A stretch of 61,565 nucleotides of DNA, filler included, from Hausera hauseri (taxonomy: Eukaryota): the NCBI GenBank assembly GCA_046269625.1. It is 11 parts of 11 records of this genome, joined end to end, with 100 filler letters (N's around TTAATTAATTAA, not from the genome) between each part and the next. Parts side by side here need not be neighbours in the genome. Positions count along the whole stretch, not along the records: positions 21,173 to 26,107 come from JBJURY010386702.1; 10 more parts are not named here. The stretch is one strand, 5' to 3'. Position numbers and translations under genes: made by a program. A model generated the notes under the pieces. The model saw only the letters and a list, made by a program, of their open reading frames with translations. It searched no databases and was not told the DNA's origin. This document shows, in pieces, positions 6,260-55,534 of this stretch (position 1 is its first letter; each line of letters begins with the position of its first letter).

Positions 6260-7831
6260 AAGCCCAGTGGAAGATAACTTTAGTTTGCTACTTGTGTGCA
6301 AGAGCATTTACCACTGGCAATCACAAAGTTCGGGATCACTGCCATGTCACTGGAAGATACCGTGGTCCTACATGCAATTCATGCAATCTCCGCTGTCCCG
6401 TTATATTTCATAATTTAAGCGGATATGATCCACATTTTATTATCAGGAAACTTGGGAATGTGATTGGAAAATTGATGTAATTCCCCATAGTAAAGAAAAA
6501 TATATTACTTTTACTGTGCATTTTGGAACCATGCAGCTGCGTTTCGTAGACAGCTTAAAATTTATGAGCAGCCGTTTGGCTCAACTTGTGAAAAATCTTC
6601 CAGAGAATGAATTAATGGAAACCAAAAGATATTTCCAGGATGATAAATTCCATCTAGTGAAAAGAAAATGTGTTTTTCCATATGACTACGTCACTTCATG
6701 GAAAAAATGGATGAAACTAACATACCAGCTCTGGAAAGTTTTTATAACAAATTTTCGGATTCGGAGATTAGCGAAGAAGATTATTCACATGCTCAAACTG
6801 TATGGAGCTCATTCAACTGTAAGACACTGTGTGATTACAGTGATGTCTACCTATTGACTGATGTGCTTTTTCTAGCTAATGTATTTGAGAGTTTCCGAAA
6901 TGTGACAGTGGCAAGCCATAAAGTTGATTCTGCTCATTTCTTCACAGCTCCTGGAATAACATGGTCGGCATTGTTAAAATTCACGGGAGTTCAGATGCAA
7001 TGGTTGAAGGACTACGACATGATATTAATGTTGGAAAGGAGAATACGAGAGGGAATATGCCAAGTAGTCCATCGGTACGCTGAATCCAATAACAAGTACA
7101 TGAGTGACTATAATTCAAAGAAACCAGCATCTTCCGTAATGTACCTTGATGCAAATAATTTCTATTGATGGGTGATGAGTTTCAGTTTACCATATGGAAA
7201 ATTTCAATGGGTCGATAATCCCAGTCAAAGTGATATCATGGATATTCCACCAGATTCAGAAACAGGATACATTTTGGAGGTCGACATAGTTTACCCTGCA
7301 TCCCTACATGATGCACATGATCAGCTGCCATTCCTGCCTGAATCAAAAATATTACCAAATGGCAAATTTAAAAAATTACTACTACATTTGGATAATCGGA
7401 AACGATATATCGGTCATTATATTGCTTTGCAACAGGCAGTGATAAATGGTGTATATATTACAAAGATCCACCGAGCCTTGCAACTAAGTCAGTCAAAATG
7501 GCTTTAGCCGTACATACAACTTAATACTGACCTGAAAATTGCTGCAAAATGATTTTTAAAAGGACCAATTCAAGTTGTATAATAATTCGGTTTTTTGTAA
7601 GACTATGGAAAATGTCTAAAATCGCAAATGTATTGCATTGGTTAATGATTGGAGTGGAGCAAGGAAATTAATTGCAAAGCCTCATTTCCTACATAGTGAC
7701 ATATACACCGTAAACCTGGTGAGTATTTGCATGGCGAAAACGGCACTCAAGTTTGACAAACCAATCTACATCGGAATGAGCATTTTGGACCTGTCGAAAA
7801 CTGTCATGTATGATTTCCATTACAATGTAAT
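6260..7831 (+). pseudogene. Polinton/Maverick protein-primed family B DNA polymerase (pPolB), decayed, interrupted by LTR insertion
   Basis: RDHCHVTGRYRG..CNL, FHNLSGYD, DSLKF, FPYDY, YLDANNFY, FK...NNSVF..TMEN and KPIYIGMSILDLSK motifs, with frameshifts and stops. Confidence 0.9.
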
Positions 7832-8564
7832 TGTGAGAAAATTGTTAAACAACTTGGATTAAATGATTGTGAATGCGAAATTTATGTAATGTAGAAATTA
7901 TTGTAAATCATTATTAGTTAAATTTAATTAAAACAAACCAGCTGTGGATTTCTAGACAAATAAACCATTTGTAAATAATAGAGTCAGTTACGTGAACAGA
8001 AGAAATTGAATTTATTGCAAATTTAATGTCACATCAACATAAGAAATTGAAATTAATTGAAAGTGAATGTTGTATAAACATGAGAGTTGGAGAACCAGCA
8101 CTATATAAACAAACTAGATTAGCGAAAGAGGCAGAAGCGAAAACTGACTTTAGAGTTAGAAAATCAATTGATCAAATTTACTATTGACGTTATTCTTCCA
8201 GTGATTTATTCTTCCTTTTAGTGATTTGAAGGTGTTACTTTTTGGTGAGTTGAATAAAGGTTATTATTTAACTTGACTGTCTGTTAAAATCCTTAATATA
8301 GTTTTGCATCGTCTCTTAAAGGCGATTAGCCTACCCTAAGGATAAAATCAACTTAAACTACATAGATAAGACTAGAATTTTTAATTTAAGACACGCATTG
8401 TTATTGCAAGCAGTACCAGCATTACTGTATAATTTCAATTAAAATCTTAAGGCACAAACAGACTATTCGAGAACGAATAGTCCTAACCTGCTAATTCGAA
8501 GACTAAATTCAAGAGAAAACATTGTTATAGTGGGAGACGGTAAGGGCCACCCCCAACTGTAACA
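7832..8564 (+). repeat. 5' LTR of Env-bearing Ty3/Gypsy element (family A)
   Basis: Begins TGT where pPolB homology stops (start approximate) and ends TGTAACA just before the PBS. TATATAA at ~8102, AATAAA at ~8253. Confidence 0.7.
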
Positions 8565-8568
8565 TATT

Positions 8569-8584
8569 TGGCGATCCTAGCAGG
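8569..8584 (+). promoter_or_regulatory. Primer-binding site, tRNA-Arg(ACG)-like
   Basis: TGGCGATCCTAGCAGG, versus the complement of the invertebrate tRNA-Arg(ACG) 3' end TGGCGATCCTGCCAGG (recalled). Confidence 0.7.
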
Positions 8585-8940
8585 GCAGTTTGTGCCTCGC
8601 TAGACATTACTTTTGAGAGTCAATTAACAACATACAAGCCAATAGCGCCATTTACACCAAATAATTGTTATACGAGTTTAGAGTGTAAAATTGGGAACAT
8701 AAGTGGTTAGAAGGGAAATAAGTAAAGATTAATTTGAGAGCAAACATTGATAGGTTTAACTCGTGTCAAAACCTATTAGTAAACGGTATAGAGAAACGTA
8801 ATCCAAGGGAAACTCGAAATAAACTTTATATCAAAGATAAGGTAATTGATAAGCGCTGTTTAGCCGACACTGAACTAGCCTCTGTTAAAGAATTCAAAGC
8901 TCCTCCTAGAATTAAAGTAGACAAACCGAATAAATTAAAG

Positions 8941-9985
8941 ATGGCAGCAGATAACCCAGCCATAGCTCAAAAACTGGATATATTTACGTTTGATTCCTTG
9001 AACTTACCGGCATATGATAGTGACCCGGACGGGCTAAACGACTTTTTAAGCACTTATAAATTACATGCAGAAGGTGCCAGTCTTGCGCCCGAAGTTATGA
9101 TTCAACGACTGTCATTATACTTACAAAACTTGGCTGCAGACGCCTACAGTGAACTTATTAACGAAGAGAAGAAATCATGGTCATCCGTAGTATGAGCCCT
9201 GAACCGTATACTATTGCCAACGGTGACGCCACAGCAAAAGCTTATGGCCTTCCAGAATAGAACGTAACAAAAAGGTGAGTCGGTTACTCAATTCGCATTC
9301 GCACTAAAGAAGCTTGCTAATAGTTACGTGAGTACGCTAAGGATAGCTAATGCGACAAAGGCAAAGAGAGACGCAGAACGCGAAGCGGCAGAAAAGGCGA
9401 GTCCGCCAGATTTAGATGTCATGATGACAACTCAGTTAATAAACGGTATATGGTCCATAGATTTAGTTAAGCAACTAATTTTAGCTCGACCAGACAATTT
9501 ATAGGCAGCATTACAATTATCTCAGAACTTAGAAATGGTGTTAGATAGATACGCTAGACAGAGTGTTAGGTATGACCGAAATAATGATCGCGATAACCGG
9601 GATAGGAATCGAAACAATAGAAGATTTAACGATAATAATAAGGACCGAGGATGAGAATAGAGCTCAAAATGCCTCTAATCGCAGCACGAGATATGGCAAT
9701 AGGAACTTTAATGATAATCGGAATACATAATCCTTATAACAAAACAGGTTATATTTCGGATAGAAATCAAAATAATGACCGAAGCAATAAGAACCGATAT
9801 ATAGATAATCCGAGTTTTGAAAACACAAAGAACGGAATCGAGAAGCAAGCTCAAAACAAGACAATAGCTATGCCCAAATCACCAGTGAATGAAGATGGAC
9901 GACAAAAGATCGGCCGAGACGGAAATCGGATTTGTTATTTATGTGGTAAGGAAGGACATATAGCTAGATCATGCCCTAATCCACG
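8941..9985 (+). pseudogene. gag: Gag with MHR-like motif and CCHC zinc knuckle
   Basis: LPAYDSDP..LNDFL, YLQNLAADAY, R.*QKGESVTQF, CYLCGKEGHIARSC; internal stops. Confidence 0.85.
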
Positions 9986-11160
9986 GAGCGTATCATTTTC
10001 AGAGACTAGTAAAGCTAGCACGATAAAAGATAATTTGGAAGGGATCTATGGAAAACGAGGTGATGTAAGCATGATTATCGAGATGCAAGACTTAAGAAGG
10101 TATGTAAGAAATATGGGCAAATCTAATAATCCATAAGTAATCAAGGCTAGGAAGGAATATGAAGAAAAGCTGCACCAAATGGAAGTTTACCATGGGTTAA
10201 GAGAGCCAAAAACAGTACGAAAAAGTTAAGCACCTAGGAATACTAACATGGCCAGGAAGAAAAACCTAAATCAAGCAACAAAAGAGGAGAAAGAAGAAAA
10301 GCCTACTACGTCGTCAAGTGTTGACGTGGACGCAGATACCGAAATCGTGTCACAAAATAAGGATAAAACAACAGATGAGGTCGAGAGTGAATTCATTGGG
10401 CCATTAATACTTAAGATAACCAAGAATAGAGGTAGAAGCCCTTCTCTTAGAAGAAGGTCAGGAACTCGTTCACGATCCCCTATTAAAAGGATTTAGAAAA
10501 GAAGGAAGACTTCACCATCACTTTAAGAGATGAAGCGGAGTTACATACTCATGTTTTAATCCAAAACGTTCCGGAAATAAAAGATATTTCGAATATCGAT
10601 GAAATTAATGAAATATGTCCGTTACCACTTAGTGAAGAGGAATCAGAAGAGGAAAAATCTACTAAATTTAGGAAGATTAGAAAATCTTGGAAAAATGCAA
10701 GCGAACTAACCAAAATGAGAGACGCACTGAATGATCCCGAAAGGCTACAGGACAGCTTACAAAAACTCCAGCAGATGAGCAAACAGTTGGATATCTCCGG
10801 AAAAAACAACAATTCACAGAAAAGCTATATAAAAAGCTTAAACCCGGTTCTCAGAGAAAGGAAGAAAACACACCTTACGAACTGCAGGAAACGCCGCAAG
10901 ACTTGATAGAAAGTTGGCAAAATAAATTAGAACTGTGGACAAGGAGTGGGATTGATTTTACGAAAATATGGTGGAACAGAAACGAGCCATTTCTCGAGCA
11001 AGTTAATCAAGCACGCGGACTATTAAACACACTAAAGGATAACCCAAAATTGAAACGCGTAAGACGTAATTTAGAAGGATTGATATATGAGATCGAAGAA
11101 GCAATAATTTCTTATCTTCATAATAAGCCAGTATACGAACTGACTAATGCCGACTTAGAG
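9986..11160 (+). pseudogene. Post-Gag extension region X (N-terminal part), unknown function
   Basis: Continues in the knuckle frame (ORFs 9651 and 10248 share a frame). Homologous to 24830-26030 (e.g. PLILKITKNRG.SPSL, NPKLKR..RNL). Confidence 0.75.
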
Positions 11161-11412
11161 NNNNNNNNNNNNNNNNNNNNNNNNNNNNNNNNNNNNNNNN
11201 NNNNTTAATTAATTAANNNNNNNNNNNNNNNNNNNNNNNNNNNNNNNNNNNNNNNNNNNNGGAGAGATTCTAGAAATTTGCCTCGAGAAGTAAATTGATC
11301 TAAACTATTTGAAAAAGAAGAACATTAGAATAGACCATCCTCTAGCAATGGCAATAACAGACTCGAAGATGTAGTACGAAACTTAACCCGTAATAACCGA
11401 TGAAACAAATCG

Positions 11413-13035
11413 AATTGGCTAATTAACTTCCTAACCTTGATGATGTTAGTAAAGTGAATTGGAGCTGTTACGGTATACCACCGCGACAATTCAAACTTGG
11501 CCAAAAATATTCACTGATGGATTTATAAACATGGGAAGTCCCAAGGCCACACAAATTAGAAACAAAAGAAAATGACTACGTATTATATCAACAGCATGAT
11601 CTAACTTCTTTAGACGGAATAAAATGTATGTTTCGTAGATCTCGTAGTATTTTCCATTGTGAATAAATGCATGGACATAAAATAATAAAACCAACAACTC
11701 CACCAATCCCAATGAACCTAGAAAGACAACCCTGTAAACAGGCTAGAGAAACTGGTAGATTAAAATGGGATGGTATGGGACTAGAAATAAAACAAGGAAA
11801 ATAATTATATCATTTAAAGCAGCAGTCGGAAAATTAGATATGCATACCGAAATAAGCAACGGAGCCGAATACGACACTGGAAAAGGAATAGGAGGCGTAG
11901 TAGTTGTTGAATTTTATAAAATCGAAATGCGGATGTTTCATAGCGTTACTAAACTCTGTACTGAAAATCAAAAGTGTCATATACAGGACGGCATTTGCGC
12001 TTATAGAAGTTCAGTCGTAAATTTGGGAACCTCCAACTAAAACTGAATGTAACTTTATCAAATTTAACGAACCAAAGTTTAACGAAACGTCAGAAAAATG
12101 TTATGTAAACAGTATGAATCTGGTTCGAAAACGCGAGAAGACGTAGCAGTACAACCTACGCCAACCATATTAGTTTCCTATACTCACGGGTTAAAATATA
12201 TGAGAAAGGATGTACTCACACGTTGCGACGCAATGATGTATGCCATTAATTACAAAACATTTTTCGTAGCCAAAACTGAAATAAATATCAAGACGTTCAA
12301 ACTCGAAGCACACGTACGAATTGAAGATTGCTTGAAAAATAGAGATGTCTATTTCTTTTACAAAGGACAAGCCGGAATAACCGAACTATGTCATAAATTG
12401 TAATCACTGATTGCAAATTAGACTTTGAAATTACGAGAACTAAACTGGCTTTAATATAAGCTAATCCCTAGTTAGCATCACCAATAATTCCAATGAAGGA
12501 AGGTGTCGTTTTTCGAGTTACTGGTGAAATTTTATTAACTTATGAATGCGAAAAAAGAGATTTACCCATAAATGTAGAAGAAAAAAGATGAATTCAAGAA
12601 TTTCCAGTACTATACCGGAATATTCCGAGATTGGCGACGACAATTACTAGAGTTTTACCAGCAAACTCAACTAAACCAAGAATTTTGAAAGAATGTAAGA
12701 CGTGTCTAGGAGAACCAATGTTCAGACGTAACGAAACTGACTGGATAAGTTTACCAAATGAAAGCGTAACTACCCCGCACAGCAAATTAACGGGAACTAA
12801 CTTTGTAAAAGGAATAACGGACGACAAATTTCAAGACACCGCGATTAAAGTATTTACAAACCGAAGGAAGTTGAAGCACAGAACGAATGAAATACGATCA
12901 ACGTTTTCGAGAGACCGAGAAATGTAGGCTTTCAGAAACGCAGAATCGCAGCCAATAACTAGAAATCAAGAAACTGAAACCGTCAATTATGTAAATAATG
13001 AACTATATCCAAATGGAGAATTCAGACAGTTAGTT
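11413..13035 (+). pseudogene. env: Env: chuvirus/herpes-gB-like glycoprotein ectodomain preceded by an internal signal peptide; decayed, TM absent
   Basis: NWLINFLTLMMLVK*IGA|VTVY, KYSLMDL, IFHC, DGICAYRSSVV, RCDAMMYA, GEILLTYEC, EFPV, C...W pattern. Confidence 0.75.
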
Positions 13036-13139
13036 GATCATCCAGTTACAACTCCGAAATTAGAATAAATGGATACAATGTGTCAGTAATCCAGCATCCT
13101 AAAGTGGCACCAAATAGCTATGGTACAATAATTAAAGGA

Positions 13140-13440
13140 TGACCCTTCACTAAAATTCAAATAAAATGTTGGGAAGTCTATGAACTAATAGACACGGAAT
13201 CCCAAATATCACTAACAAAACACGACTCAATACTACAGGTTTTATGAAAACAATTATATCCACCACCAGCAACAGATCCAGGAACTGTTGGAGCTCTGTA
13301 TAGTCATCGAGATGTAAATACAGATGGAAGCCTGAAATATACATGATGGGAAAATCATTTCATCACGAATCCTCAATAATAAAACAATTAACTGATAATG
13401 TTGTGTTAGGAGACGATTTAGTGAAACAATTGTCAAATGT
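13140..13440 (+). pseudogene. pro: Retropepsin (aspartic protease), degenerate
   Basis: PFTKIQIKCWEVYELIDTESQISL (DTG degraded to DTE); downstream *CCVRRRFS-like remnant at the C-terminal LG.D position. Confidence 0.6.
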
Positions 13441-13769
13441 GGATTCCGCTGGAAAAAAGCAATCCTCCTAGAATACAGATGTTGATTTATGCACAATTCC
13501 GTCAAGATGATGATCAGCCAGTGTACTTTGAACCAAAAGAAACGCTAAATCCAAGCACCGTACACAGGGTATCGTCAGGCCGTGTGCCGATTAGATTAGT
13601 AAAAATGCGCCAATTCCAATTAAACTTTACGGTAATACTACAGTGGGTCATACGTATAAAGTGTCATCGATAACTATCGAGGAAAAACCTTATAAACGCT
13701 CTCAATTTCAATCTCATGTTGAGAATAAATTTTCACCTGAGTTTTACTGTCGCTTTTATGACCTGTTAT

Positions 13770-14740
13770 AAATCGATTATTGATGAAAATAAAGATATTG
13801 GTAGAACTAAAACTCCAAGGTTAACAATTCTGCTTAAGAGAAAGCCAGGTTCAAATGACTCAATAAATCTAGAAGATCAGAAGATGCCAAAATAGTATCC
13901 TATGCCTCATTTATTAATACTTGAAATAAGAAAAATTGAAAGAATGCTTAAAGCCGATATCATTAGACCGAGCTATAGATCTTGGTATTCACTTATACTT
14001 ATGATTAAAAAGAAAGGTTCCACAAAACATCAATTTTGTATCGATTATAGAGCGCTGAGCAATCTTATGATGAAAGATTCTTTTTCATTACCATCTGTAA
14101 AGGAAGCTTTAGATAGACTCTCAGGAGCAAAATGGTTTACCACTTTAGATTTGCAATCCGGATAGTGGCAAATAAAAATAGAAGATAAAGACCGTTACCA
14201 GATAGCATTTAAAACTCACGATGGTATATGCGAGTTTAATATCATGTCATTTGGTATTACAACCGGACCAGCTATTTTTCCCCGAATGAATAAAATATTG
14301 ATGGGATTAGAACATGCATTTGCATATTTAGATGGTGTAATGATAGTGTCATGAACGGAAGATGAGCATGTAAAGGATATCGAAAATACACTTACGAGAT
14401 TAGAACAGGCAGGATTAAATCTAGATCATACGAAATATAAATGAGCTCAGAATGCGGTATCCTATCTCGGACATATAGTTGGAGAAGGAGGATCGAAACT
14501 TGATAAGTCATTGTTAAACAAAATATCAGACTGTATGGAACCACAGAACCAAAAAGAATTAAGACATTAGTAAGGCTTGTATGGATATTATGCGACTTAT
14601 GTGCCAGAATAATGAAAATTAAATGCACCATTGTATCGTTTACTTAAAAAAGGAATCAAGTGGAAATGGACAGACGTCGAACAAAAGGCCTTCAACGAGA
14701 TGAAGACAATTTTAACCAGCGACCCAGTAATTCATTACGT
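13770..14740 (+). pseudogene. pol: Ty3/Gypsy reverse transcriptase, decayed, truncated before RNase H
   Basis: IIRPS.RSWYS, FCIDYRALS, WFTTLDLQSG*WQI, MSFGITTGPA, YLDG (YLDD), YLGH, AFNEMKTILTSDPV. Confidence 0.9.
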
Positions 14741-17700
14741 TTGACGCATATCGAAAAATCACTTTCTTGTAACACTTTCTTTTGCATTTCTCGGCTTCTC
14801 TTGAATAATATCGTGTTTTATTTTCGTCCACGCATTCATCCCGACATTCTCCATTAACCTATACCAATTTCCTGAATGTTGCTCAACATTTCTGGTTTGT
14901 CTTCAAGTTGATTTCTTTCTTCCACCATGTATTTTGCATTCGTTCTGACTTCACCGTTCGACTCACACAAATACCGACATTCGGAAACCATCATGGACTG
15001 GCTTGACCAACTTCCACTTCTGCTCCACAGACCCATGCTGGATCTTTGCCACTTTTGATTGATTACCCCGCTTGTGGCATTCACCCCTACCCACTCTATC
15101 CCATATCATTCGAACGCCCATAACCCAAACAACAAATTATCTCATCAATTACTGCTCAAATTTGGCTTCCGGAAGAAGTCGATTTGATTGCATTTCCTGA
15201 TTTCCCCTAGGGTTATACAGCCTCGCAGTGTGCACCATTGAATTCGCCGTACTCGAATTGTCCAAAAACCACTCATTGTCCAACAGCACCTGTTCCATTT
15301 CCCGTGTTCCTTTCTCCTCCAGGCCGACATCCAGAATATCTACCTCCTTTTACCTTTATGTAGAATTTAACTTTTTGTGTTAATGACTTAGCCTACTTGT
15401 GTTTTGGTTGTCAACGCTTTATTTAGTGGGAAAGGAAATTAGAATTACTTAAACAAAAAGAAAATAGACTAAGCAAAAATTATTTAACTTTTACTGAAAG
15501 GATGATTTCTTCGCTAGTAACTGTTCCGAACGAGGTTAGTGAATATATTTTTCTTATGCTTTTCCGAAAAATTGATTATTCCTTTGGTATATCGAACGGA
15601 TGTTAAGAGTTGAATCCAATTTCTCTACATAACCTTTAGCCACCGGGCGGTTAGACAATACAATTTCACCGTCATTTTTTAATTCTTCTATTATTAGTCG
15701 TTTATTCCTCATGGAATCACTAGATTCTTTGGAATTTTCGTTATATTTCAAAGGATTTTGTTCAGCCTTCTTGACAGTATTGCGAATTTCGCTCTCTTGA
15801 TAATCTTTTATCTCTTTTGACATTCGCTGTTTAATTTTCTCGAAATCCTTAACACGACTATCAACTCCTTGTNNNNNNNNNNNNNNNNNNNNNNNNNNNN
15901 NNNNNNNNNNNNNNNNTTAATTAATTAANNNNNNNNNNNNNNNNNNNNNNNNNNNNNNNNNNNNNNNNNNNNAACAATTATCTCCTTCACTCATTAAATG
16001 ATTCTTCTTTTTATCCTTTTTTGAATTTCCTGACTTTATATTGGCTGTTTATTGATTCAACTTTGAATTGAATTAAACATTAATATTCGTTTAAATTCCT
16101 CCTCACAATTACAATAAAAGAAACAAGGCCTTTTAATTTTATAGTATTTTAATTTATTTTAATTATAATGTAATACATTTAAAAAATGTTTATTTATTTC
16201 GTTTTAATTAGCAAGGTTTTACAGTAGCGCATTCCATCATAATAAAATTGATATATGTACATGATTGACCACAAATTATATTCGAGTGATATTTTTTATT
16301 TCGTCAGAGCACAAAGGAAACGACATAAATTGAATATTAAACGAAGATTTATTTAAAATGCAAATTTTAAATAAATCTTCGCTTCATGTGTTTATAAATG
16401 TCATAAAATGTCAAGTTGAGGAATACTACCTCATTGATAATTGGTTGTTTTGTGGCAATGAAAATTGAAATTAAATCTAAAAATTCAAATAACTGTAACT
16501 TATAAAAATGGTTATTCGTAAAACAACTATAAATGGTACTTCCAACAATTTAACTGCATGAATAAGTGTATTTCTGTTTTTTTATCAACATTTTACGAAC
16601 AGTTAGCACAAAGAAAAAAATTTACATACTAATATTTATAAATATGTTTACATGAAACGAAACATATTTTAACGAAAATAAATCAAAACTTTGAAATTAA
16701 TTTTGCATAAAATCTGAAAACTTGTTAAAAATCAAATAAACGTACTTGAGTTTTAAATCATCACGATAATTGCAAATTATGATTTCAACCACTATTACAA
16801 CTTTATATTAACAGAGTACACAACAAATGTCAATGTTGACTTTATTCGGTTATCGATTGTCCCATTATTGCTATAATAATAATTTGTAACTGATCGCCTA
16901 AAGTTGGTCAGTGTTTATCAATCGAAATGTGTGTTAAATAGACCAAACCTAATACGTACATCCTGATTATTGAAATTTACAACTTTGAAATGTACTTTGA
17001 AGTGTTCCACCGTTTGTTATAATTTGACAAATCATTCCATCTTCAATTATTGTATCAGTTACGCGTGTAATATTTATAACTGTTTTTACTGGATGTGTTG
17101 TCTGTCAGAACATTGTTTTTAAATCAAGGTTCGAATTAAGATTATTTTTGTTCAATATGCAATTCACACACCGAGAAAGTCTAAAAGATATTTTATGTAC
17201 ATTTTTATTTTACTGAGGCAAACAAAAGCACTGATCACGTGACTATCACGTAACTGATCACATGATGCGTGAGTGGACCCCTTTTCCCTTTGGTCCAGAA
17301 CCATTTTTTTACCCTACTTATTCGGACTTATTTGTTTTGCTGAAATGCCGATTCACTTAGCCAACCTATTACACTCAATGAATTCATTTTAAAACTTGAG
17401 TCATTCAACCAGCCCACCGTATTAAACTTATTTTAAAGTTTGAGTCACTGGTGGTGCTAATGCGTTTAAATTTAATGCGTTTTTAATGAAAAGCATTAAT
17501 CTTTGTAACAGTTATCAAATTGCAAAATAAATTAGATTTTTTTGTAAAAGTAGTCGAATTACTAAAGCAAAGTTCATTTACTCTATGTGAAAATATATTT
17601 ACTGAATTTTATTCTAAAACAATTTACACTGTTTACAATTGGGTATTTACCCATGTGAAATCAACATTCACCATTTTTACTTTTTGGATTATCATTTCAT

Positions 17701-21172: not shown

Positions 21173-22245
21173 ATTGGCGTAGATTAGAGCTAATTTAGTT
21201 CTCATAATTTCCAAGTCTAATTTACAATCGTTTGTTATCATCTTGTGATGCAATTTTGCTATTCCGGCTTGTCCTTTATAGTAAAAATAATCGTCTCTGT
21301 TCTTCACATAGTCCTCAATTCGGATATCTTGAGTCTCGAGTTGAACTTTCGTACATTTATCTCAATCTCGGCTACAAAAAACGCTTCGTAGTTGGTAGCA
21401 TACATTATTACGTCGCATCGGGTGAGCATGGTTTTCTTTACGAATTGTAATCCATGCGTATCCGAAATCAATATAGTAGGTGTGGACTGTTCGGCCACAT
21501 CTTCTCGTGTTTAAGAGTTGGTCTCTGTATTAGTTATGTACCGCTTTCCGGTCGTCTCGTAAAATTTTAATTCTTTGATCCTAATGAAGTTACAATCAGT
21601 CTTAGCTGGTGGTTCCCAGATCACTACTGAGCTTCGAAACGGACAAATGCCATCCTGGATGTTACATTTGTGGTTTTCGGTATAGAACTTGGTAACGCTA
21701 TGGAACATTACTTTCTGTATACGCATTTCGGTTTCATAAAAATCCACTACCACAACGCTCGGCTCTAATCCTTTTCCCGTATCATATTCTATACCTGGGC
21801 AATGTCCAGTGTGCATATCCAGTCGTCCTGCTGCCACCTTATATACTCTAATTATTTTTCCTTGTTGCATCTCCAATTCCATGCCATCCCACTTTATCCT
21901 TCTAGTTTCTCTGGCTTGTTTACAATGTTGACGCTCTAAATTCATTGGAATTAAAGGAATGGTTAGCTTGATTATTGACAAGTGTCCATGTATTAATCCA
22001 CAGTGAAAAATGCTTCGAGATCGTCTTCACATACACTCTACTCCATCTAATGCAATTAGTTCGCGTTGTTGATATAACACGTAATTTTTTCCTTTGTTTC
22101 CAGTTTGTGCGGCCTCGCATTTTTGCACATTTCCAAGTCCATTAGGGAGTATTTCTGGCCAAGCCTAAATCTATCACAATCATATACAGTGACGGCACCT
22201 ATCTGCCTTATTAGCATCATGATGGTCAAGAGGTTGATTAGCCAA
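21173..22245 (-). pseudogene. env: Env N-terminal half (gB/chuvirus-G-like) with internal signal peptide
   Basis: WLINLLTIMMLIRQIGA|VTVYDCDRFRLGQKYSLMDLEMC ... RSIFHCGLIHGH ... CKQA ... CNIQDGIC..RSSVVIW ... DCKLD. Confidence 0.8.
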
Positions 22246-25200
22246 TTCGATTCGTTTCCTCTGCGGTTTCCGGTTACGTTTCGTAGCAGGTCACCGAGCC
22301 TGTTGTTGTCGAAAAAGAATTCTCCTTTATGTTCTTCTTCCTTTTCGAAAAACTTCGACCAATTTACTTCTCGAGGTATTTTTCTGCCAGCCTTCCTTGC
22401 TAAGCTAGTAGCCTTATTAAATTCATTTTCGCGGTTCGGGTTGGTCTTTATGGCTAGATATAACATCACTTTCCTCAATTCCTCTACGGTATTTTCCATC
22501 ATAATCTTCTCAATCGTTGCTTCATCGCTTAAGGTACTTTTGGATAATTTATACCGGAGTCCTTTCATGGCTTTGGCAGCATTTAATATGGTCTTTTCTT
22601 TTTCATCTAACACATCGCCGTTCAAACTGGAGTGGTTCACTTTTCGTATCAGATCTTTCATTAGTTCATTCAGTTCCTCACTGTCTGCACTAAAGGTTGG
22701 TATGGACATCTGTCTCAGCTCTCTGATCAAATCTTCATTATAGTCGATTTCTTCTCTTACCTTCCGTGGCCTACCAATAGGTCGCTTCTGTTTCGTTACG
22801 ACAGGTATACCAACATTAATCGGTACTAAATTTTTATCGTATTGTTCATGATCTTCGTCTCTCTGTAAATACTCAATGTACACTACCGCGTTTCGGACTC
22901 CTATTATTCGTCCTACTGGCTGTTCGGCCTTTGCCTTCCTTATAGCCTCTTCTTTTGTCTCATCGTTAGCGATAGTTACCACTAACTGGTTTACCTCGTC
23001 CGGAATGATTCCAACCTCTATTAATAGTTCCGACTCGTCGAGCATTCTCCCTCTAAAATATAATCTATAGTTCACCTCTTGGTTGTAACCATTATTCTTT
23101 ATACATAATAATACATCCTTCACGGATGAATGTGTGGTGAATTCTTGCTCTTTTTCATCCATCCAATCTGCCGTTATTTTAACTTTAATTCCCTCGTCGA
23201 GCTGGTCCTTGGAAATTTGGCATATTCTTTGATTAGAAGTTTTGGCGCGGCATTGTAAACTGTCCCTTCGCCGGCTAATTTGGTTAAAGTGGGAACCCAC
23301 CATCTTAATTGTTTTTCAGTGAGGTTCACATTGATTAACCTAAATAGTTCCTTTTCAGTTTGTACCGGATCTAATAGCATTTCTACACAGAATTTCTGTT
23401 CTGGCGAGCATATCTCCGTTTCGTTTAAGTGTACTGGAGTTTTCGGGGTTTCGGCTATTATGGCATCCAGATATGCCTCCCAATCTGGTTCATTTTCATT
23501 ATCCGGTAGTGTATAACTTCTTGGTAGTGTATCAGTCGACTCTCTTGCACCCGTCATCTCTACGGTTGCTCTAAGTTCACGTAGCTTCTGTTGCATTATA
23601 ACCATTTGGGTGGGTCGGAAGCAGCGACCATTTCCTGAACTTCGATGTAGTACCGTTAGCAGCTGGCATAATTCCTCGGCTGATATAAGTCCCTTTTCCT
23701 GGTAATTAGTTAACTCGGAGGCTACGTCTCATTGCCACCTTTGTACAAATTGCGACTTGTCAGCCTTCTCTGCTTCGGTAAGAGCATATTTAACTTTACA
23801 TGGTTCGAGTTCTTTGGCGAGCTCGTCCAATCTCGTCGCTCTCTGTTTGGTTTTGATATTAGTATCTTCCACTTGCTGTATCTGGGGCAGCAGCTGTCTT
23901 AATTTCTCATCGCTGATTTCGGCCATAACTTTGGAGTCGGGGTCTATCTCGTCCCGTAGCCTTTTTATGAACTTGTCTTCTTCAAATTCCAAATATTGCT
24001 CATTTCTCATTTTAGTTAGTTCGGTATGATACCTTTGATCGACTCCAGGCATTCCTTCCTGTGGTTGATGTAAAAATGCCACTATCTCTTCGAGGGTCGA
24101 CCTGTGATTAGGACAAACGTCTAATGCCTTAAGGTCACGTACGGATATTTCTTTTATGGGCTTGGTGGCCAATTTTTGAATCCCTTCTAGACGGACTTTT
24201 CATAATTTCGAATAAAGGTCGTGCATCCGATTCCGTTTTTGCGCAAAGTTTGTTTCTTCAATCGTTTTGTATATATCCCCAAGTATCATCATTTCTTGTT
24301 CCTTGTCCATAAAATCCACTGAGCGTAAGGATTCGAATTTCGTTCGGATATCAATTTCTGCTTTCATCGTATCTAAATTTTGGGCGCCTTCTTCCAACCG
24401 CCTCTTCACTCTGAATTCGCTTTGCGGAAATTCATTCATCCGGCTACTTGTTAGTTTGCCCAACCTTGCTATTACTTTCGACCACTCATTCATTTGATTC
24501 TTGATGTCTGACTTTGCTAATATTGCTTTGTTTAACATCTTATTGGCATCTTCCAGTTCTTCATCTGGGCCTTTGAGGAAATCAATGATCTTACAGGCAT
24601 AGTCGAACTCATCTTTATATTCATCAAATTCGAGGATACAAGCTATAATTATTCTCTGTGTTTCATCGTTATTTGGGTACATAATTCTATTCTTTAGACT
24701 ATTTATCTGCGACCGTTTTTCGGCTTCGAGTTTGATACGACTTTCCAGGTTAGTGTATTGCCTTGTCGCATTAGAGGCGATTTTTATCATTTCCATTAAA
24801 GGTGGAATATCTATGGGGTCTATACCCAACACTTCCAAATCCGTTTCAGTCCTTTTTTGAACCGGTTTCTTTTTTATTTGCTCAACTATGATAAATCTAA
24901 TTTCGTCCATTACACGCTTTAAATTTCGTACCGCTCGCTTTAATTTCGGGTTTGCTTCTAATATTGCTAGCAGCGACTGAGCCTGATTCACTTTAGTTTC
25001 TATGTCTTGTGTGGTCTTATACCACATCTCTAAGTTTTTCGTCTCAACCTTCGTCCAGTGTTCTAATTCACTCTTCCATTGTGCTAACATTTCTTTTGCA
25101 ACTTCATCGGGTTGATCCAAATCTATGGCTTCATTTAACTTCCCTTCACTATACAGTTTCACCTTTTTATACAGTCTCTCGACAAACTGCTGTTCTTTGC

Positions 25201-26045
25201 CAGAAATATCCACTTGTTCACTTATCGCTTTGAGTTTCTCTAAATTCTGTTGTAATACCTCCGGGTCGTGACAATTTTCCCTCATTCTTTTTAACTCCTC
25301 GGCATTTTTCCACGAGCGCCTGATTTCCCACTTTTAGGGATCAAGTTTCTTTTCTTGTTCGGTTTCCTCTTCACTAGTAGGTATCGGACATACATCGTTT
25401 ATTTCATCCGCAAATTTTATCAATCCTTCTATTTCTCCGTGCGTGACTAAACTAACTTCTGGACAATTTGAGGCGTACTCGATGTGGCTTTCTGGTGCGA
25501 TTTTGATCTCTTTCTTTGTGCTTTACTTGCGCATGGGAGATCTTAATCTATCTTTGCCTTTTCGCTTCAACGAGGGACTAGGGCCTCTGTTTTTAGTAAT
25601 TTTAAGTATAAGCGGCTCTAGGAATTCTTCCTTCTCTTCAGCGTCTATTTCCTTAGTTATCTTTTTCATAGTATGCTCGGGCTCTACCTCTATAGTTACT
25701 TTATCCGGAGTCTCAGAATTTTCCATTTCGTCTGACTCTTTGCTTGTCCTAGAGAGGTTCTTCTGCCGTGCCATATCAGTAAGCCTTGGCGGGGCGATAG
25801 AACGTTTATATACCGTTTTTTGTTCATGATAAACTTCCATTAGTCTTAATTTGTGCTCATATTCATTTCTAGCTACTAAGAATTTAGGGTCACCAGTATC
25901 AGGCTGATTTTTCAAAAAACGCCTTAAATCTTGTATCTCAATAATCATGCCTGTGTTTCGACAAATGCCATATATTGCTTCTAGATTTTCGTTTCTAATT
26001 ACGTTAGTTTTACTAGGTTCCACGAACGAAACGCTTCGCGGATTC
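22246..26045 (-). pseudogene. Region X (~1,250 aa): RS/basic patch, helical/coiled segments with SAM-like repeats, ubiquitin-like domain, AT-hook
   Basis: Long co-framed ORFs. Ubl-like YRLYFRGRMLDESELLIEVGI; AT-hook KRPIGRPRK. Confidence 0.7.
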
Positions 26046-26414
26046 GGACAAGACCTCGCTATATGTCCTTCTTGTCCACATGTAAAACAGACTAAATTGC
26101 CATTTCTNNNNNNNNNNNNNNNNNNNNNNNNNNNNNNNNNNNNNNNNNNNNTTAATTAATTAANNNNNNNNNNNNNNNNNNNNNNNNNNNNNNNNNNNNN
26201 NNNNNNNGTCAGATTATTAATACGTGTCTGAAATTCACTTTTTCTCTCTAATGAATTTAAAATTGTAATATTTTTGATCAAATCTTTATGTATAAGATTA
26301 GGAAATCTCCAGACGTTTGAATTTTTGAGGATATGACAATTCGTGGGGAATCCACTTATCCATCTTTTTCACCTTTCAAATTTTATTAAGGTAACGACAT
26401 CGTTACTATGGATA

Positions 26415-27672
26415 ATAACTGAGCAAGAAGTAGAGGCACAAAATTCAAAACGCAATATAATGGAAACAGATAATTATTAGTATAATATAACTTAAACCGC
26501 CAGGGATTCGTCCTTAGCGCACACTCGTAGATTTTTTCGAAAGGCCTTGAAAAGGTTTTTTCCACATATTTGGCGATTTTTATCGACAGCGGTTTCCAAA
26601 TTCGCGTTATCTGGGCAACCGTTGATCCATTTTGCTTCTGATGATGGTACTCGGTCTTACATAACGCCAAAAGCGTTCGATAAGTCGGCATTGAGGTAGA
26701 TTAGGGGGATTCTCGGCCTTGGGTACGAATTGGATTCCAGCATCCGCAAATTTATCGGTAACAATGCGTGCGTAGTGGGCTGTGGCAAGATCAGGCCAAA
26801 AGAGAATCGGTTGAGGACCCTTCTTCTTTTCCAGGAGCGGCAATAACCTTTTTCCAATGCACTCAATCTTGTAGATCTCCACGTTGATGGTCCTTTGAGT
26901 GACAAAAGGTTCCGACACATCTCCGTCCTCCGCATTCGCTTGCCATATCATAAGTTTTTATTCAAATTTGCCGGTCTGCACGACAGTTTTTTCAAGTGGA
27001 ATTTCCTCTCCGGGAACATCATTGTAATATGCTGGTTGTGCGACCTGGGTGGGATTTGTTGGAACGTAAGTTTTATCGTGCAACACAAAAAAATTTTCCT
27101 TCCGGATTTGACGCTCAACTTATAAAGTTTTGCGCACCACTGCATGCAACGGACAATTTGGTTCGAAACGTACTTCGGTTTGAGACTCTTCTTTCTCCGT
27201 TTGATCCCGACCGACTTCTTGATGACTCGCAATGTTGACTTCTTGAGATCACGTTTACAAGCACGCACCTTGTTTGACAGCGTTGTGTTCTTTACGCAGT
27301 CGCTGATGACTCTAGCCTGTTACCTTAATGTGTTAATAACAGACTGTCGTCCCGGAATTAGCTTGAACAAAGCAGTGCCATTTCGTAGAAATGGTGAAAT
27401 GACATTATGGATGGTCCTGGAAATCCCTGAGTCACAAAATGTCGAACAATCATTTTACGATCTTCTCCATACTTCAGGACAAAATAGACTATTGACTGGG
27501 CCTTGAATTGGTTTTGCTGCCGGATCATGGTTGCATAAGAACGTGATTGATTTGACAGTTAATGAGATGTAGCTAACAAACTTTCAAACAAAATGTAAAT
27601 TTGAACCGTATCTATTAGAGAGCGTGCACAATAGCTCTTTAAATTTTGTGCCTCTACTTCCTGCTCAGTTAT
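26415..27672 (-). mobile_element. Tc1/mariner superfamily DD37E (ITmD37E-like) transposon with decayed transposase
   Basis: ~35-bp TIRs ataactgagcaagaagtagaggcacaaaattcaaa / tttaaattttgtgcctctacttcctgctcagttat, TA on both flanks. FWPDLATAHY...NPPNLPQCRLIERFW has exactly 37 residues between D and E. Confidence 0.9.
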
Positions 27673-31478: not shown

Positions 31479-32238
31479 TTATACAATGGCGGTTCCGCTT
31501 TTTGTTATTTTCAACTCGGCATTAAATACACCGTAAATATGCATCACGGTAAACTGTTGCAGCGCTTTGCCAAAGTGAACCTCTAATCGAAGGTTTTCCT
31601 CTTGACGTAATTAAGGCTTCTCAACACCATAGTCCGGGGACAGGACAAATGTGAAGAATGCGTAGGTGGACTTGAGCAAATCCATCGATATGCCATTGTT
31701 GATGTCTTTCTTGAGCAAACCTATGTTGCACACGACGGATTGTATATATGTGCAAACATAATCATTATATTCAAAGTTTTGTTTGTACGCCTCAACAAAA
31801 TCCGCATACCGACCCAAACAGATGTTATTCACATTGCTATGGGTAAACGTTTTCTAATCGGTCGTATAACTGCCCGTTTGTTGAACAGTAACGAGCACAA
31901 ATTTGGGCAATCGCATGTCGCCAAACAGGGCGTCCTTATAAAACGTAGATGAACCTTTGGGTATCGTGTAAAAGACGAGTTCTGTGCGTTGTATCTGGTA
32001 ACAGGCATTTTGTGTTTCCAAGCCCAATCGATGTCCCATGAGCACAGATGGTTCTATCTTTACAACACGTACGTATAATAGTGCCTCGGTAATTTTTAGT
32101 GTGGGTTTCAGATTTGCAACTGCGGTTTTCAAACAAAAGACATTGTCGCTTCGTTTGAGCTGAATCATGGCTTTAACACCGGGCAGTAGGTATTTCGGCT
32201 GATCGAAAAAGTCAAAGTACAGCGGTCCACACATTGTA
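31479..32238 (-). pseudogene. Polinton major capsid protein, C-terminal part
   Basis: GPLYFDFFDQPKYLLPGV, LYVRVVKI, RLPKFVLV, NLRLEVHF. Close homolog of 55535-56766. Confidence 0.85.
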
Positions 32239-33649: not shown

Positions 33650-36600
33650 TTATTTCAGCCGCCAATATCCGTACGCCCAACTCTTATTTCGCCCCATCCA
33701 CTTTCGCTTATCATCGTTATATGACAAAGCGACTTTCGCACTAGTTATTGTGTACAGGCGGTGCTCAATTGATCGGATGATAGTTTAAAACACAACAGCC
33801 ACTGATTGTTCTCCTTCTGCTGCTGGTGCTTCATATATACGACGATAATCACCGTTGCCGATTTCCATCTGCTTCAGTTGGATGCCTTTTTCTTGTATTT
33901 TCGGTCCACAATCCATCAGAAGACTGCAGCACTTTGAGCGTAGGAATATCCATTTCCGGTACTGAACCCGACCTTCACTTTCATCTTTGAAGCAGCCGAT
34001 TTTGTTGGTTATAGCGCTGCTGTACAACGCATGATCCGGTGGGTAGTTGGACGTGTCCAGTAATCCATTTGACTGCATTTGCTGACGTAGCTGTTCGCGA
34101 TTGACTTTTTTCAGCGCTGGAAAAAACTGTCAGTGTCACCTGCAATTATACTAATGTCACAGCCGTCAAACATTTTCCGGTAACGTGCCAAGTCGCGATA
34201 CAGTAGCTCATACATCCGAAACTTGCTCAGGTTCAATACCATTTGTCAGATGTAACTTGACTAGACCAGAACGACTTCTTCTATGTTTAACAGCACTACA
34301 ACCAATCCATCGGCAATGTGTATTGACGCCGAAACTGCGCATTATTCGTGTACGTAACCAACCGCTTTTAACTATTGCATAGGCGTACATTAAGCCGCTT
34401 TTTCAGATTCTCAACTATTTTGCCATACAGGGAATTGTTTTTCAGCTTATAATAGTTCTTTTCGAACTTTGTACAAGCTGTGGCTCGTTTCTCCAAATTT
34501 CGACCTATGTTCGCCTTGAATATCGGAGATTGAGCAAGTCGGATTGCACGATGTAGCTGTGCAACGCGAACACCGAGTTGCGTGTAGAGCTGTAGTGGAC
34601 GCCAATAGACTACGTAATTCAGCTTCGGTTCATTCGTCATGAGCAGTTTCTTCACTTTTGAGCCTGGTGGACATTAGTTAAATGGTGCGACCGGAAAATC
34701 GTCCAAAACGTCATGCAGCTCATCTGGTATCTCGAGATCATCCTCCATCAGGTATCCAATTAAGCTTGCCATGTCTGTTCGTGGTAGGTTGGCCATTATG
34801 TCGTCCAGACCTTGTCTGTCGATTACCCATTCAAGTGAACCGAACGGCAAGGGTTGCGAAAGCGCCCAGCCGTACAGGTTATTAATATCATTATACAGCA
34901 GTGATGTGGTATCGGTAGCACTGATCTGATGCTTTTTGACAAATGTCATGCCACCTCGAATACCAACATCAAACAGTCGGTACATTTCCGGGTCTTGCAG
35001 CAGCTCAATGTCTCGATTCAATGACATTAGAGCTGACGCCAAACTCATTACCGGTATGGAATAAAAATTGAGTGGCTCCAGCCTATCTTCAGTCAACGCT
35101 TTAGCTTGAAATGTCTAAAACACATCGGCTAATAAGTACACGTCCAGTTTCAGATACTGAAGCATGTACTCCAACATGTTTCTACAGCCGAGTTCTGTCC
35201 AACACCTCTGTGATTTCTGGTATTCATCCTCTGCGATACCTGTCCATCTCGGAAGTAATTCCCCTGCTGTTCGGTGTCTCTCATATAATGTTTCAAAGCC
35301 ATACGGGAATAATATACCTTTGCTACGAGCAGTATGTGTGGGAAATTACATCAATGTCATCGGCACATCCTGCAAGGCATTTACGAGCCTTCCTAGAGAC
35401 GCATTGAAAAATTGCTATGAGTCGAGGAAGAGTACTTGGAACGGGTTTATGCGTGCTTATAGGGACAGGTATTTTCTCATTGTTGTTGGGATTACTGGCA
35501 GTTCCCAGTGGGTAAATCCATTAATGGTCCATTTCAGTATATGGTGACAATCATAACCTGGAAAATTATGAAAGATCACCGGTAAAAATGGCCGCACACG
35601 CCTTGCCAAATTGCAAGAATTATATGCTGCTCCGAGATATTGAGCAGTCAAATGATCGTGATCCGGTACGAGCTATTCCAGTGCGCCAAACGGTAATTTT
35701 TGTGGCACAGGTAACATTCATCTGTGACTGCAAGCGTCATGCGTTCATCATCATTTGTCAACATCAATGGTTTATTGCTTTTTCTACTGTGCCACAGTTC
35801 GATTTCAGTTTTCACTATGGTTTGCAACTGCTGCTGGAAATCACGTACACAGTTCCAGCCGTGAAAGGCGTAATATGGAGGTTGGCCGACCGCTTTTATT
35901 GGGACAATCAACATAACAACGGCGATAGGAACGTGCTTTTGATCATACACGTTGTGCAGTGGTAGAATTGCATCAATATCGTCATATACCACATATGCTG
36001 GATTGGCCGTTTTCGACCAGTCACTGAATCGGAGTTCCTTTTTGAGTGGCATGACGTACATGGTTGTTCCCGCTAAATTCTGCTTGCACAGCATCACATG
36101 TTTCTCCAATGTTGTTTTGACCTGAATCCATGCAGACATACGGGACACCATTTGCATCGTATTTGCTTTTTGATGAACTGGTCATGCTCCATGTTGAACA
36201 GTCTATTCAGATTTGTCACTGCCACGTAATGAAAATTTTCACCCTGCTCCAACAAAAACAAATTTACCGAGTGTCCATTCGGGTTTCAATAGCGATAAAT
36301 TATGTTTACATGGGGTTTTGTAAAAATTTCTTCGTCTTCCGGTATTTCTATTATTGTGTTGTACCGGAAAACGTTGACTGACAACATCGGATTACGCCGT
36401 TCAAAAGCCGGAATGGTTTTCAGTTTCATCGGCATCCAGCATTCATCAAATTTCAATTTGGAAAAATACTGCCGATACTGATTTGGACGATTTGCATGAT
36501 ATCTGTTTACTTCGCTGTACTTCAATACAGCCAGAATGCTGTACAGAAAGCAGTATTAGTCGTCATTATTTTGTACATTCACTACCTCCAAAGACTGCTT

Positions 36601-37150
36601 TAAAGATGCAGGTGTTGGTATGAGTGACAATCAAGACAAATATACTACGTCACTCGACTTTGTTATGATATAGCCGAGTGTGACAATTCGTATAATTCGC
36701 CATCCACTACCCTTTTCGGTATAGTTGGCGATTTTCTCATTCAACTTTTCGCCTACATCGGCAATAAAATCTTCCGAATACGGTACGGCTCGATATGACA
36801 GGTACCATTGTTTCCTGTCACCTTCAACATTTTCATATTCTGCAAGTGCATAATATTGCACTTTCGAGTTGTTGTGTTTAAATTTCTCCACCTCTAATTC
36901 TAACCGGTTGCACACACTGGACCGAATATGTCTCAGCTCTAGTGTTGTTGTCCCTGACATGTTTACTTTCATGTCCACGTACAATTTGTTTAGATTGTAC
37001 TTGACAGTAATGGAAGGTTTCTGCTGTTGCATCTGATTCTGTTTGGTACTGTTTCGCATGTATTCGTCAAGACTTGTTGAGGCCTGACGTTCCTGCTTGT
37101 TGAGGGGATATTGGTTTTTCTTGTCGCCGTCACTATTTCCTTTGTGGACC
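33650..37150 (-). pseudogene. Polinton pPolB with N-terminal extension, decayed
   Basis: GSGW, CFLYSILA, FHNFPGYD, GIRGG, YNDINNLYGWALSQPLP, KLKNNSLYGK, GDTDS, IGCFKDE, LSYNDDKR..AYGYW. Confidence 0.92.
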
Positions 37151-38669
37151 ACTGAAACTGGTTGAAGTGGTCCTTGTGCTGGTTATAAAATTGTTCATAG
37201 TTGATTTCATCAACCGTCGAACAACCGGAACAAACGTAGGCCCGTTTACGGTGCACCGTTCTGACACTATAGTACTGCTCCATTACACTATGGTAACCAT
37301 CAATGTCATGCACTTTACTACTAGAGTATCGCGGGTATGTTGAGCAATGCACAACTATCATCTTTTCACGCGTAAACGGGCCAAGATGATACTTGTGCAT
37401 CGCATGAAAGTCAAGGTGTGGACAAGGAGTCGAAATTTTACCTCACGTTGGGCACAAATATGAGTCCGTGCTAACGGTGTAATATTTAGCCATTTGCCGA
37501 TGGCACTGCTCCTGCTCCGCATGTATGCGCGAGACGCAGTACATGGGATAATTAGTATACTTCTGAGTGGGAAACAAAATAAAATAAATATTTTATATTA
37601 ACTTATAAATACTGTAAATTGAAATATGACAACTTATTTGTCGGTCGTGAGAAAAAAAGTCTCCTTGTTCTCTTATAAACAATTTTTCTAAATGCTGCAA
37701 TAACAACAACAACAACAACAACTAAAAATCACATGGAACAGTACACTGAAAGCGAGATTAAGAAATTGACCGATGACATTTTGACTGGACATGTGTTTCA
37801 TGTTCAGTTTTTGTGTGAGCTCACAGAAACCAGAATAATTAGCCGACGGGAATATATTGAATTAATTCTCAGCCATCTATTCATACAACGTATCAAAGAT
37901 GAAATGAGATGAAAACGGCAAAGGATTAATATCCTTATTTGACTCACAATTTCCGTTTCATTTTGTATTGTATTCAAGAAACTGATTGACCATATTTGAA
38001 TATTTCGCTATACGTTTGTTTTTATGTGTCAATTACATTTATTTTGTTTCTTTTCGTTACACTGCTGTATAAATACTAGTGCTTCTTCGTTCCTGTATGA
38101 TTATAAAATGTGTCATTTAACACAACTCATTCGTCCGCATCACTCCTTTGATGGTCTCCGGAGTCATCTTTACAACCTTGATCGACCTTTACAATGTGCT
38201 TGGTATTCGTCTCTTGAAACGATACTGCTAAGTGCTGAAGACAATTGGAAATCACAGGAACTCTATAGACGTCATATGAAGCAGACTGTTGGTGACATGG
38301 ACGTGATATTCAGTCAGATTTTTCGCACATGACAGAAATTGGCGGATACCTATGCACTGTGTTATAACAGTCCATGTCAAATGCAATTTGTGGATGATTT
38401 TGTCCAAAGCGACCAGATGATAATGGATTACGTTCCCATGTGGCAATCGTAGCAATCCGTTCGACTTGCCAACATCAATTTTACCTCTGTACAAAATTTC
38501 GGTATACCAACAACATGTGTTGCGTTGCCGGTTGCACATTGCCCATTTTTCTTCTTCCGCCTCCTGTGCCGCCGGGTTACATTTTTCGGCTTCGCGGCGC
38601 TGTTGACTTTTGTTCGCCTTGTCCAGCTCGACCGATTGGTCTCTATCCAAAGTTCATTCCCCGACCTTC

Positions 38670-40610: not shown

Positions 40611-41559
40611 NNNNNNNNNNNNNNNNNNNNNNNNNNNNNNNNNNNNNNNNNNNNTTAATTAATTAANNNNNNNNNNNNNNNNNNNNNNNNNNNNNNNNNN
40701 NNNNNNNNNNGGCAATATGACTTTAAGCAAATTCATTGAACAATGAACAATCCTTAATATAATGTCCGTGTATGTATAACTGTACATGAATATAGAACAT
40801 TTCTGATTACATTCTGAAAAAGAGGTCGGCAAATTTGACGAAAAAATTCCTCTATGTACTCAACAAGCTCTACATATGGATCTGAAGATAGTATCACATT
40901 TCTGATTATTTGTTGTAAAAATCCCTGTGACAATAATAAATGTTCCTTTGTAAGATAAATTGTGACACTATAAGATTCAACTGTTTCATTTTTTCAGAAT
41001 CCTGAGGGGTAAACAATTCGTGATTTTCAATAACATTCTGGACTTATTCAGCCATAAATTTGAGCAGATGAAAACTGTCTTAAACTATCGAGCGTATAGA
41101 AAGCTTTGTTTGAATTATAACTGAAATGTAATATCAATTATTTGGTGTTTGCGATAAAGCTTATAAAAACGATTACAATGTATACTAAACATAAAAATGG
41201 AACCAAGTGGGTTAAAGACGTCTATAAATGACACAACATGCTCAAAGAACAGAATAAAACGATTGACATCTTGACTCTAGTTTGTTAAATTCTAAATCAA
41301 TCATTTTATATTACTCCTGTAAGATATCCTCCACTAGTGGATCTTTGTAATCGCTTTGTCTTGCATTTCGTTGGTTATCTTTGTTAATTGTTTGAACAAT
41401 CATACTTATCAGTTGTTCTGTATCCATTATGCGTTTCTTTCGTGTTTTTAGGTATGCTTGGATGAACTTTCTGCGAATAATATGCATTCAGATCCTGCAT
41501 GTTGTCGTAATCAAAGTTAAAATGATCATTATAGTCTTGATCGATATCACTTTCTTGAA

Positions 41560-42900: not shown

Positions 42901-43269
42901 CGTCTTCTACGAGAAACGTTGCTGCACATACCTTGACAAATTGTAATTATCCTAAATTGAGATTTTGTCCCAATCTGATTTCCTTCTTATTAATGCTTTC
43001 TATTGGCAACTCCAAACGTTGTACTTCTTTTGGCACAAATAAAGGTATTGCAAGATCTTACATTTTTCGTTGTTATACAAATTTGGTTCGAACATACAAG
43101 TTTGCTTGAGATTTCCAGATGGTATCGTTAACATTACCACTATCTGATGTTGTGGTTTGATGACGATATTATGGGTCAAGGTCATATTAATTTCTTCTAT
43201 TGGTAGATTGGTCATCGTATATTTGAGAGTTTTGGTCGATATATCCATTGAAAGGTCCGATATCTGGAA

Positions 43270-43555
43270 AAATACATCCATTCCTATTACTAAGGGTGCT
43301 GGCAATATTTTATCATCCACTAAAAATAAAGTGATCGTATGTGAGTTATCATCAATTCTTATTTTAATGTTTATTTTTCCCAAAAATTGCACCTGCATGG
43401 AATTAGCTGCTGCTATTACTATATCACTTGGCATGATTTCTCCCTTTTGTTGGTCGGTTAGATACGAATATCGAATCATCGAAACGGACGCACCGGTATC
43501 TAATAGTGCCATTATATTTACTCCAATAAATCGCACTGGAACATAAGGGTTATTT
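43270..43555 (-). CDS. pro: Retropepsin protease domain within ORF 43000-44058
   Basis: PYVPVRFIGVNIMALLDTGASVSMI...LVIGMDVF. Confidence 0.9.
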
Positions 43556-55515: not shown

Positions 55516-55534
55516 TTGACAGACGGACAGACAA

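Follow-up and report, generated by a model that had tools for sequence, protein, structure and literature searches.

The window analyzed here, 61,565 nucleotides of the Hausera hauseri assembly GCA_046269625.1, consists of short contigs chained by artificial N-spacers. The contig of interest is bounded by such spacers on either side and carries, in order along its minus strand, a CCHC zinc knuckle, an extension of Gag, a ubiquitin-like domain (Ubl), and a GRP motif; a helical stretch and a signal-like peptide come next, and the contig ends within a fusion glycoprotein (Table 1). A Pfam scan of the ~880-codon extension returned nothing at the cut-off, and its first half is 37 to 52% identical to a sister copy at 9915 to 11160. 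We take the GRP motif to resemble an AT-hook or a nuclear localization signal. The env region was matched in tblastn searches from 16 relatives. Decay of this copy is evident: the extension has four in-frame stops, the frame is broken between 23213 and 23189, and env is interrupted as well. With these stops and frame breaks, it cannot make the protein itself. Contigs from three public runs covered 30 of 30 bins of 21173 to 26107 (12,797 contigs in one run) and differed from the window at several of its break sites, which together indicate a high-copy family. The breaks look particular to this copy.

Table 1. Features of the Ubl-bearing contig and of the sister-copy contig, in window coordinates
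Feature	Position	Strand	Basis
Middle of decayed GAG-ENV-POL Ty3/gypsy element, zinc knuckle into env	21173..26107	-	N-spacers; public-run contig coverage
Gag nucleocapsid CCHC zinc knuckle	26042..26092	-	Pfam PF00098, E = 1.1e-7
Gag extension of ~880 codons, four in-frame stops	23402..26041	-	ORF list and translation
Probable four-helix-bundle partner of the Ubl, read in the Gag-side frame	23213..23401	-	Relatives-only helix profile, weak (E = 0.25); abuts the Ubl as in relatives
Ubiquitin-like (beta-grasp) domain without C-terminal GG	22968..23189	-	Relatives' profile, model of a relative, mostly silent family variation
Basic GRP motif	22761..22784	-	Shared with the spacers of P0001 to P0006 and with P0018
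Hydrophobic stretch, likely internal Env signal peptide	22197..22247	-	Most hydrophobic 15-mer of the frame; aligns to the equivalent stretch of relatives
Start of fusion glycoprotein of the Monjiviricetes/herpes-gB type, disrupted here	21173..22196	-	Pfam PF24664, E = 4.7e-9 on 22026 to 21514
Sister-copy contig: pre-env, env, protease, and reverse transcriptase in order	11261..14789	+	Reverse transcriptase 37 to 44% identical to relatives

As a GAG-ENV-POL Ty3/gypsy errantivirus, the element belongs to a known kind. Its Gag, with a CCHC knuckle, is identified by the PF00098 match and, in the sister copy, by a match over the capsid region (8878 to 9375). That sister copy is spread over two contigs, 6260 to 11160 and 11261 to 15872, and comprises capsid, knuckle, env, protease, and reverse transcriptase. 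What the sequence-only reading had taken for an assembly gap of copy 1 is an N-spacer joining two separate contigs. A gB/chuvirus-type env lies ahead of pol, as seen from PF24664 and the sister contig 11261 to 15872; the Ubl's own contig stops within env. The pol order of protease, reverse transcriptase, RNase H, and integrase was read from relatives (P0005, P0007, P0009, P0012, and P0013), the window copies of this family ending short of integrase. Placement of the Ubl in a Ty3/Gypsy polyprotein was correct in outline and is refined here: the element carries an envelope and is of the GAG-ENV-POL type, with the Ubl between Gag and Env and not in Pol. The GAG-ENV-POL arrangement has been described for nematode, bryozoan, and flatworm errantiviruses of the Ty3/gypsy group, in the portion of that survey available (PMC13524379). 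Like the errantiviruses with HSV/gB-type env described there, our elements have the order gag, gB/chuvirus-like env, and pol and occur in many genomic copies. Unlike in that account, as far as the available portion goes, each relative here consists of a single reading frame, and many have two to four proteases and a second membrane protein past integrase.

Other mobile sequences were also seen in the window. A third, more distant element lies at 41500 to 45031 on the minus strand, with env, an in-frame protease, and then reverse transcriptase and RNase H, its Gag side falling beyond the contig end. Stretches at 6260 to 7850, 31854 to 32238, 34674 to 37442, and 55122 to 56638 are presumably Polinton/Maverick DNA polymerase B or major capsid gene look-alikes; those scanned had no Pfam hit. 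Two related Polinton/Maverick-like capsid copies form inverted repeats. A decayed stretch at 26600 to 27100 on the minus strand we take to resemble a Tc1/mariner-type DDE transposase.

The 74-residue Ubl peptide is encoded exactly where it had been reported, at 23189 to 22968 on the minus strand, as residues 43 to 116 of a stop-free frame of 419 amino acids (23315 to 22056). The protein probably does not include the initial ~40 residues of that frame, because the upstream partner domain sits in the neighboring frame. Taken by itself, the window Ubl is barely above chance. Pfam returned UBX (E = 0.071) and Rad60-SLD_2 (E = 0.21), and phmmer against PDB gave three matches, ubiquitin family throughout, at E values of 0.7 to 0.9. 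In the ESM Atlas, an archaeal ubiquitin cluster ranked top at 0.92, with 166 shared features against a guide value of 170. A single-sequence AlphaFold model of the window Ubl had a pLDDT of 48 and lacked a beta-grasp. The base composition of the Ubl is that of the rest of the element. Across 10 members, the Pfam ubiquitin-clan matches were to ubiquitin, Rad60-SLD, and UBX, with two members matching each, and all stayed below the curated cut-off, with a best E value of ~0.02.

Relatives changed this picture. The 419-aa frame found no direct homologue among longer proteins, and against all representatives it had one match, P0001, confined to the signal-peptide/env junction. The env region of P0001, used as a query, retrieved 17 polyproteins; since these relatives were collected via env, the set was not selected for the Ubl. 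Searched with P0001's own candidate stretch, 9 of the 17 (P0001, P0002, P0003, P0005, P0007, P0008, P0009, P0010, and P0012) carried a Ubl between knuckle and env, preceded in all nine by a conserved helical domain of ~70 residues. Five others with a full Gag-to-env region (P0013 to P0016 and the BEL-type P0017) lacked it, while P0004, P0006, and P0011 start too late to be scored. Profile searches added P0018 and L001 to L005, the latter being five contigs of a single metagenome record set, out of 118 pattern matches; none of 12 pattern matches among viral contigs proved to be a relative, and none was found in prokaryote genomes (0 of 72). P0012 is labeled in NCBI as a protein of a Flavobacteriaceae MAG, probably through eukaryotic contamination of the bin.

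Pairwise identity across the Ubl ranges from 12 to 72% and is mostly 18 to 33%. A test profile built from 14 relative rows, with no window row, scored the window Ubl at 31.8 bits, compared to 9.0 or less for shuffles (987 scored of 1000) and −0.2 for the reversed sequence. The same relatives-only profile ranked the window Ubl first among 1476 stop-free window stretches (E = 1e-7; runner-up, 0.12). Set against the shuffles, and given the relatives, the Ubl is thus clearly above chance. When the relatives' profile was run against PDB, 57 of the best 60 matches bore ubiquitin-family names; the best single-domain match had an E value of 0.0016, lower values being summed polyubiquitin repeats. The Ubl occurs twice in P0007, and a second copy is found at the C terminus of P0005. 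A possible degenerate extra Ubl (partial, E ~0.08) lies ahead of the module in L001 at ~1930 to 2200 and likewise in L002, L003, and L005. Patchy presence and duplication suggest, at the level of sequence comparison, an accessory host-interaction module. Resolution was poor in trees of Env, reverse transcriptase, and the module, where the window sits on a long branch, and a single origin cannot be fixed from them. P0016, which is without the module, nests in a supported reverse transcriptase clade of module carriers, hinting at module loss. As for the proposal of a captured host domain, the domain is old and common to distant lineages and shows no sign of recent host capture.

Structure prediction on a relative fits this assignment. 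The modeled module of P0008 has the strand-strand-helix-strand-(helix)-strand fold and can be superimposed on ubiquitin and SUMO, which places it on the model within the superfamily, at an identity to ubiquitin-family structures of only 8 to 21%. The P0008 model applies to the window Ubl through the profile link (E = 1e-7), and we are nearly certain that the Ubl has a genuine, if predicted, ubiquitin fold. The beta-grasp prediction proposed as a check thus failed on the single window sequence and succeeded on P0008. In the same model, helices span residues 2 to 15, 21 to 33, 38 to 50, and 59 to 76, and a pTM of 0.85 suggests that helices and Ubl form one rigid unit. In the window, the relatives-only helix profile ranked 23213 to 23401 first of the 1476 stretches, weakly (E = 0.25); this stretch aligns with the helical domains of relatives, and the frame break of this copy lies between it and the Ubl. 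The helical domain had no usable match in the ESM Atlas, its profile reached E values of 0.3 or worse against PDB, and fold searches with the whole module gave matches taken up by the Ubl half. The helical domain may resemble the TFIIS N-terminal fold.

A C-terminal di-glycine is present in none of the 10 aligned members, setting them apart from type I modifiers and bearing out the view of an integral, non-conjugatable Ubl. The surface through which ubiquitin binds proteasome and ESCRT receptors, the L8-I44-V70 patch with R42, is not kept: the Ile44 column reads K, V, W, T, T, T, E, E, Q, and Y, and R42 is retained in 2 of 10 members, its column being mostly L, I, or M. The window Ubl, with R42, F45, G47, and L50 kept and Tyr at position 44, is the most ubiquitin-like member. 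Conserved instead are the columns of ubiquitin D52, R54 (always E), D58 (as E), and N60 (always G), which make up an acidic face, along with the S57 column and one invariant Asn. Because the Ile44 patch varies across the family, plain ubiquitin mimicry appears doubtful for it. The conserved face may merely pack against the helical bundle.

Variation among related copies suggests constraint on the Ubl. Variable sites fell at third codon positions in 23 of 33 cases (P = 2e-5), and of 34 changes, 22 were silent and 12 were replacements, compared to 20 to 30% silent expected; no stops occurred and no indel was listed. Variant sites were taken from a thresholded contig table, and the silent-site test is indicative and not a formal dN/dS analysis.

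Further cargo was observed in the relatives. Many of P0001 to P0013 have two to four aspartic protease domains per reading frame, one of them past integrase. A second signal-peptide-plus-transmembrane protein comes after the post-integrase protease in P0002, P0003, P0004, P0009, and P0013; P0007 has such a protein without the extra protease. P0005 contains C2H2 zinc fingers at residues 1403 to 1497, between two protease domains. A helical domain with a Bcl-2 BH2-like end precedes the env signal peptide in P0011 (1 to 123), P0007 (~1000 to 1150), L001 (3442 to 3858), and L003 (2586 to 3002). Just the BH2-like motif marks this candidate, with weak matches (Pfam, E = 0.2; Bcl-xL in PDB, E = 0.3), and its profile had no match in the window.

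We propose that the Ubl and four-helix bundle form an accessory module between Gag and Env, putatively docking onto the host ubiquitin/SUMO system by a face other than that of Ile44, and we give this reading an even chance. The relatives would make one polyprotein, and whatever lies ahead of its internal signal peptide would remain in the cytosol. After cutting by the element's aspartic proteases, the module would stay attached to the Gag tail or the Env leader, or be set free, and its conserved acidic face would engage a partner in the host, with a ubiquitin/SUMO-system protein the most likely. Such binding might help particle assembly or blunt host control, with the module presumably neither conjugated nor serving as a cleavage signal.

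A more direct role, which we consider unlikely, is that of a built-in ubiquitin at the late-domain position recruiting ubiquitin receptors of ESCRT, the proteasome, or p97. The Ubl does follow the nucleocapsid, and the window copy retains R42, F45, G47, and L50 with Tyr at 44. The late motifs PTAP, PPxY, and YPxL are found in none of 16 spacers, nor in the Ubl-to-env stretch of the window, but the four Ubl-less spacers are without them too, which makes the absence uninformative for the most part. Late domains can be replaced by ubiquitin fused to Gag, yet this budding requires L8 and I44, according to the available part of PMC2958808. In our family, the I44 column varies and R42 is mostly replaced by L, I, or M. 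It is rather improbable that the module instead has a structural role internal to the element, binding its own Gag, protease, integrase, or itself with no host partner. The single rigid unit suggested by the pTM of 0.85 and the tandem or repeated Ubl of P0007 and P0005 would agree with such a role, and coronavirus and USP-type Ubl domains often work within their own protein. However, four gypsy relatives (P0013 to P0016) have a complete gag-to-env region and no Ubl, which argues that the module is dispensable for the core cycle.

The order Ubl, GRP motif, and signal peptide in the window, P0001 to P0003, and P0005 recalls a long Env leader peptide like that of MMTV, acting in the nucleus, with the Ubl governing extraction or turnover and the GRP motif nuclear import or DNA binding. 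In the accessible part of PMC5371415, the MMTV signal peptide is extracted by p97 and acts in a Rev-like manner, but a UbL added to it led to degradation and not function. The GRP motif is, moreover, missing from the module carriers P0007 to P0010 and P0012, and we regard this alternative as improbable. Chance resemblance, or recent passive capture of a host ubiquitin fragment in one copy, would fit the sub-threshold outcome of every single-sequence test. This reading is contradicted by the shuffle control, the same-position homologues, and the fold model; the silent-site bias, the match in base composition between Ubl and element, and the 8 to 21% identity of P0008 to ubiquitin-family structures also speak against it, and we judge it very improbable.

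Several known systems resemble the docking module that we favor. Type II integral Ubls (Ubiquilin/Dsk2, Rad23, Parkin, and the SUMO-like domains of Rad60) likewise have a beta-grasp without a terminal GG within a larger protein; unlike them, the module has variable Ile44-patch residues and a four-helix bundle ahead and is encoded by a retroelement. Ubiquitin and Ubl insertions of pestivirus (BVDV) and baculovirus and giant-virus ubiquitins, found as BFVD matches, also put a ubiquitin fold in a viral polyprotein or genome. The BVDV inserts are recent, near-identical host captures that end in GG and are cut by host proteases, whereas the Ubl here is 13 to 19% identical to them, is without GG, and is common to old lineages. 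Ddi1/DDI2 combines a UBL, a helical domain, and a retroviral-like aspartic protease. The elements similarly combine, in one chain, a Ubl with a helical domain and with retropepsin-type proteases (matching PF09668). In contrast to Ddi1, the order is helix-Ubl and Env separates the module from the proteases, so the arrangement is not Ddi1-like; no Ddi1 entry is among the best 60 PDB profile matches. Ginger, Mutator, and Helitron DNA transposons carry Ulp1 and OTU domains, as reported in the available portion of PMC2836005, and are thus likewise transposons with ubiquitin/SUMO-system domains. Theirs, as described in that portion, are deconjugating proteases in DNA transposons, whereas here a ubiquitin fold resides in an LTR element.

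None of the titles listed in open full-text searches on retrotransposons and ubiquitin describes the helix-plus-Ubl module. The word "ubiquitin" occurs 0 times in the text and seven supplements of the errantivirus survey, as available (PMC13524379), and a rotifer paper on captured ORFs leaves ubiquitin unmentioned. The element type is known; the ubiquitin-fold module appears previously unremarked, and its function is proposed here by inference.

Envelope-carrying gypsy elements have been described as gag, env, and pol only, and the module suggests that they have accessory genes comparable to those of complex retroviruses. It also ties LTR retrotransposons to the ubiquitin/SUMO system, a connection so far noted for the deconjugating proteases of DNA transposons. 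As a small foldable unit of 160 residues, the module is testable on its own, and it is usable as a lineage marker. A bolder extension, speculative and in our view unlikely, is that an ancient invertebrate lineage of enveloped, single-polyprotein Ty3/gypsy viruses carries an accessory protein of its own, a new-family four-helix bundle fused to a ubiquitin/SUMO mimic, as a decoy against ubiquitin/SUMO-dependent silencing, alongside other accessory cargo (the Bcl-2-like motif, extra proteases, and second membrane protein). If that were true, these elements would be an invertebrate counterpart of the complex retroviruses.
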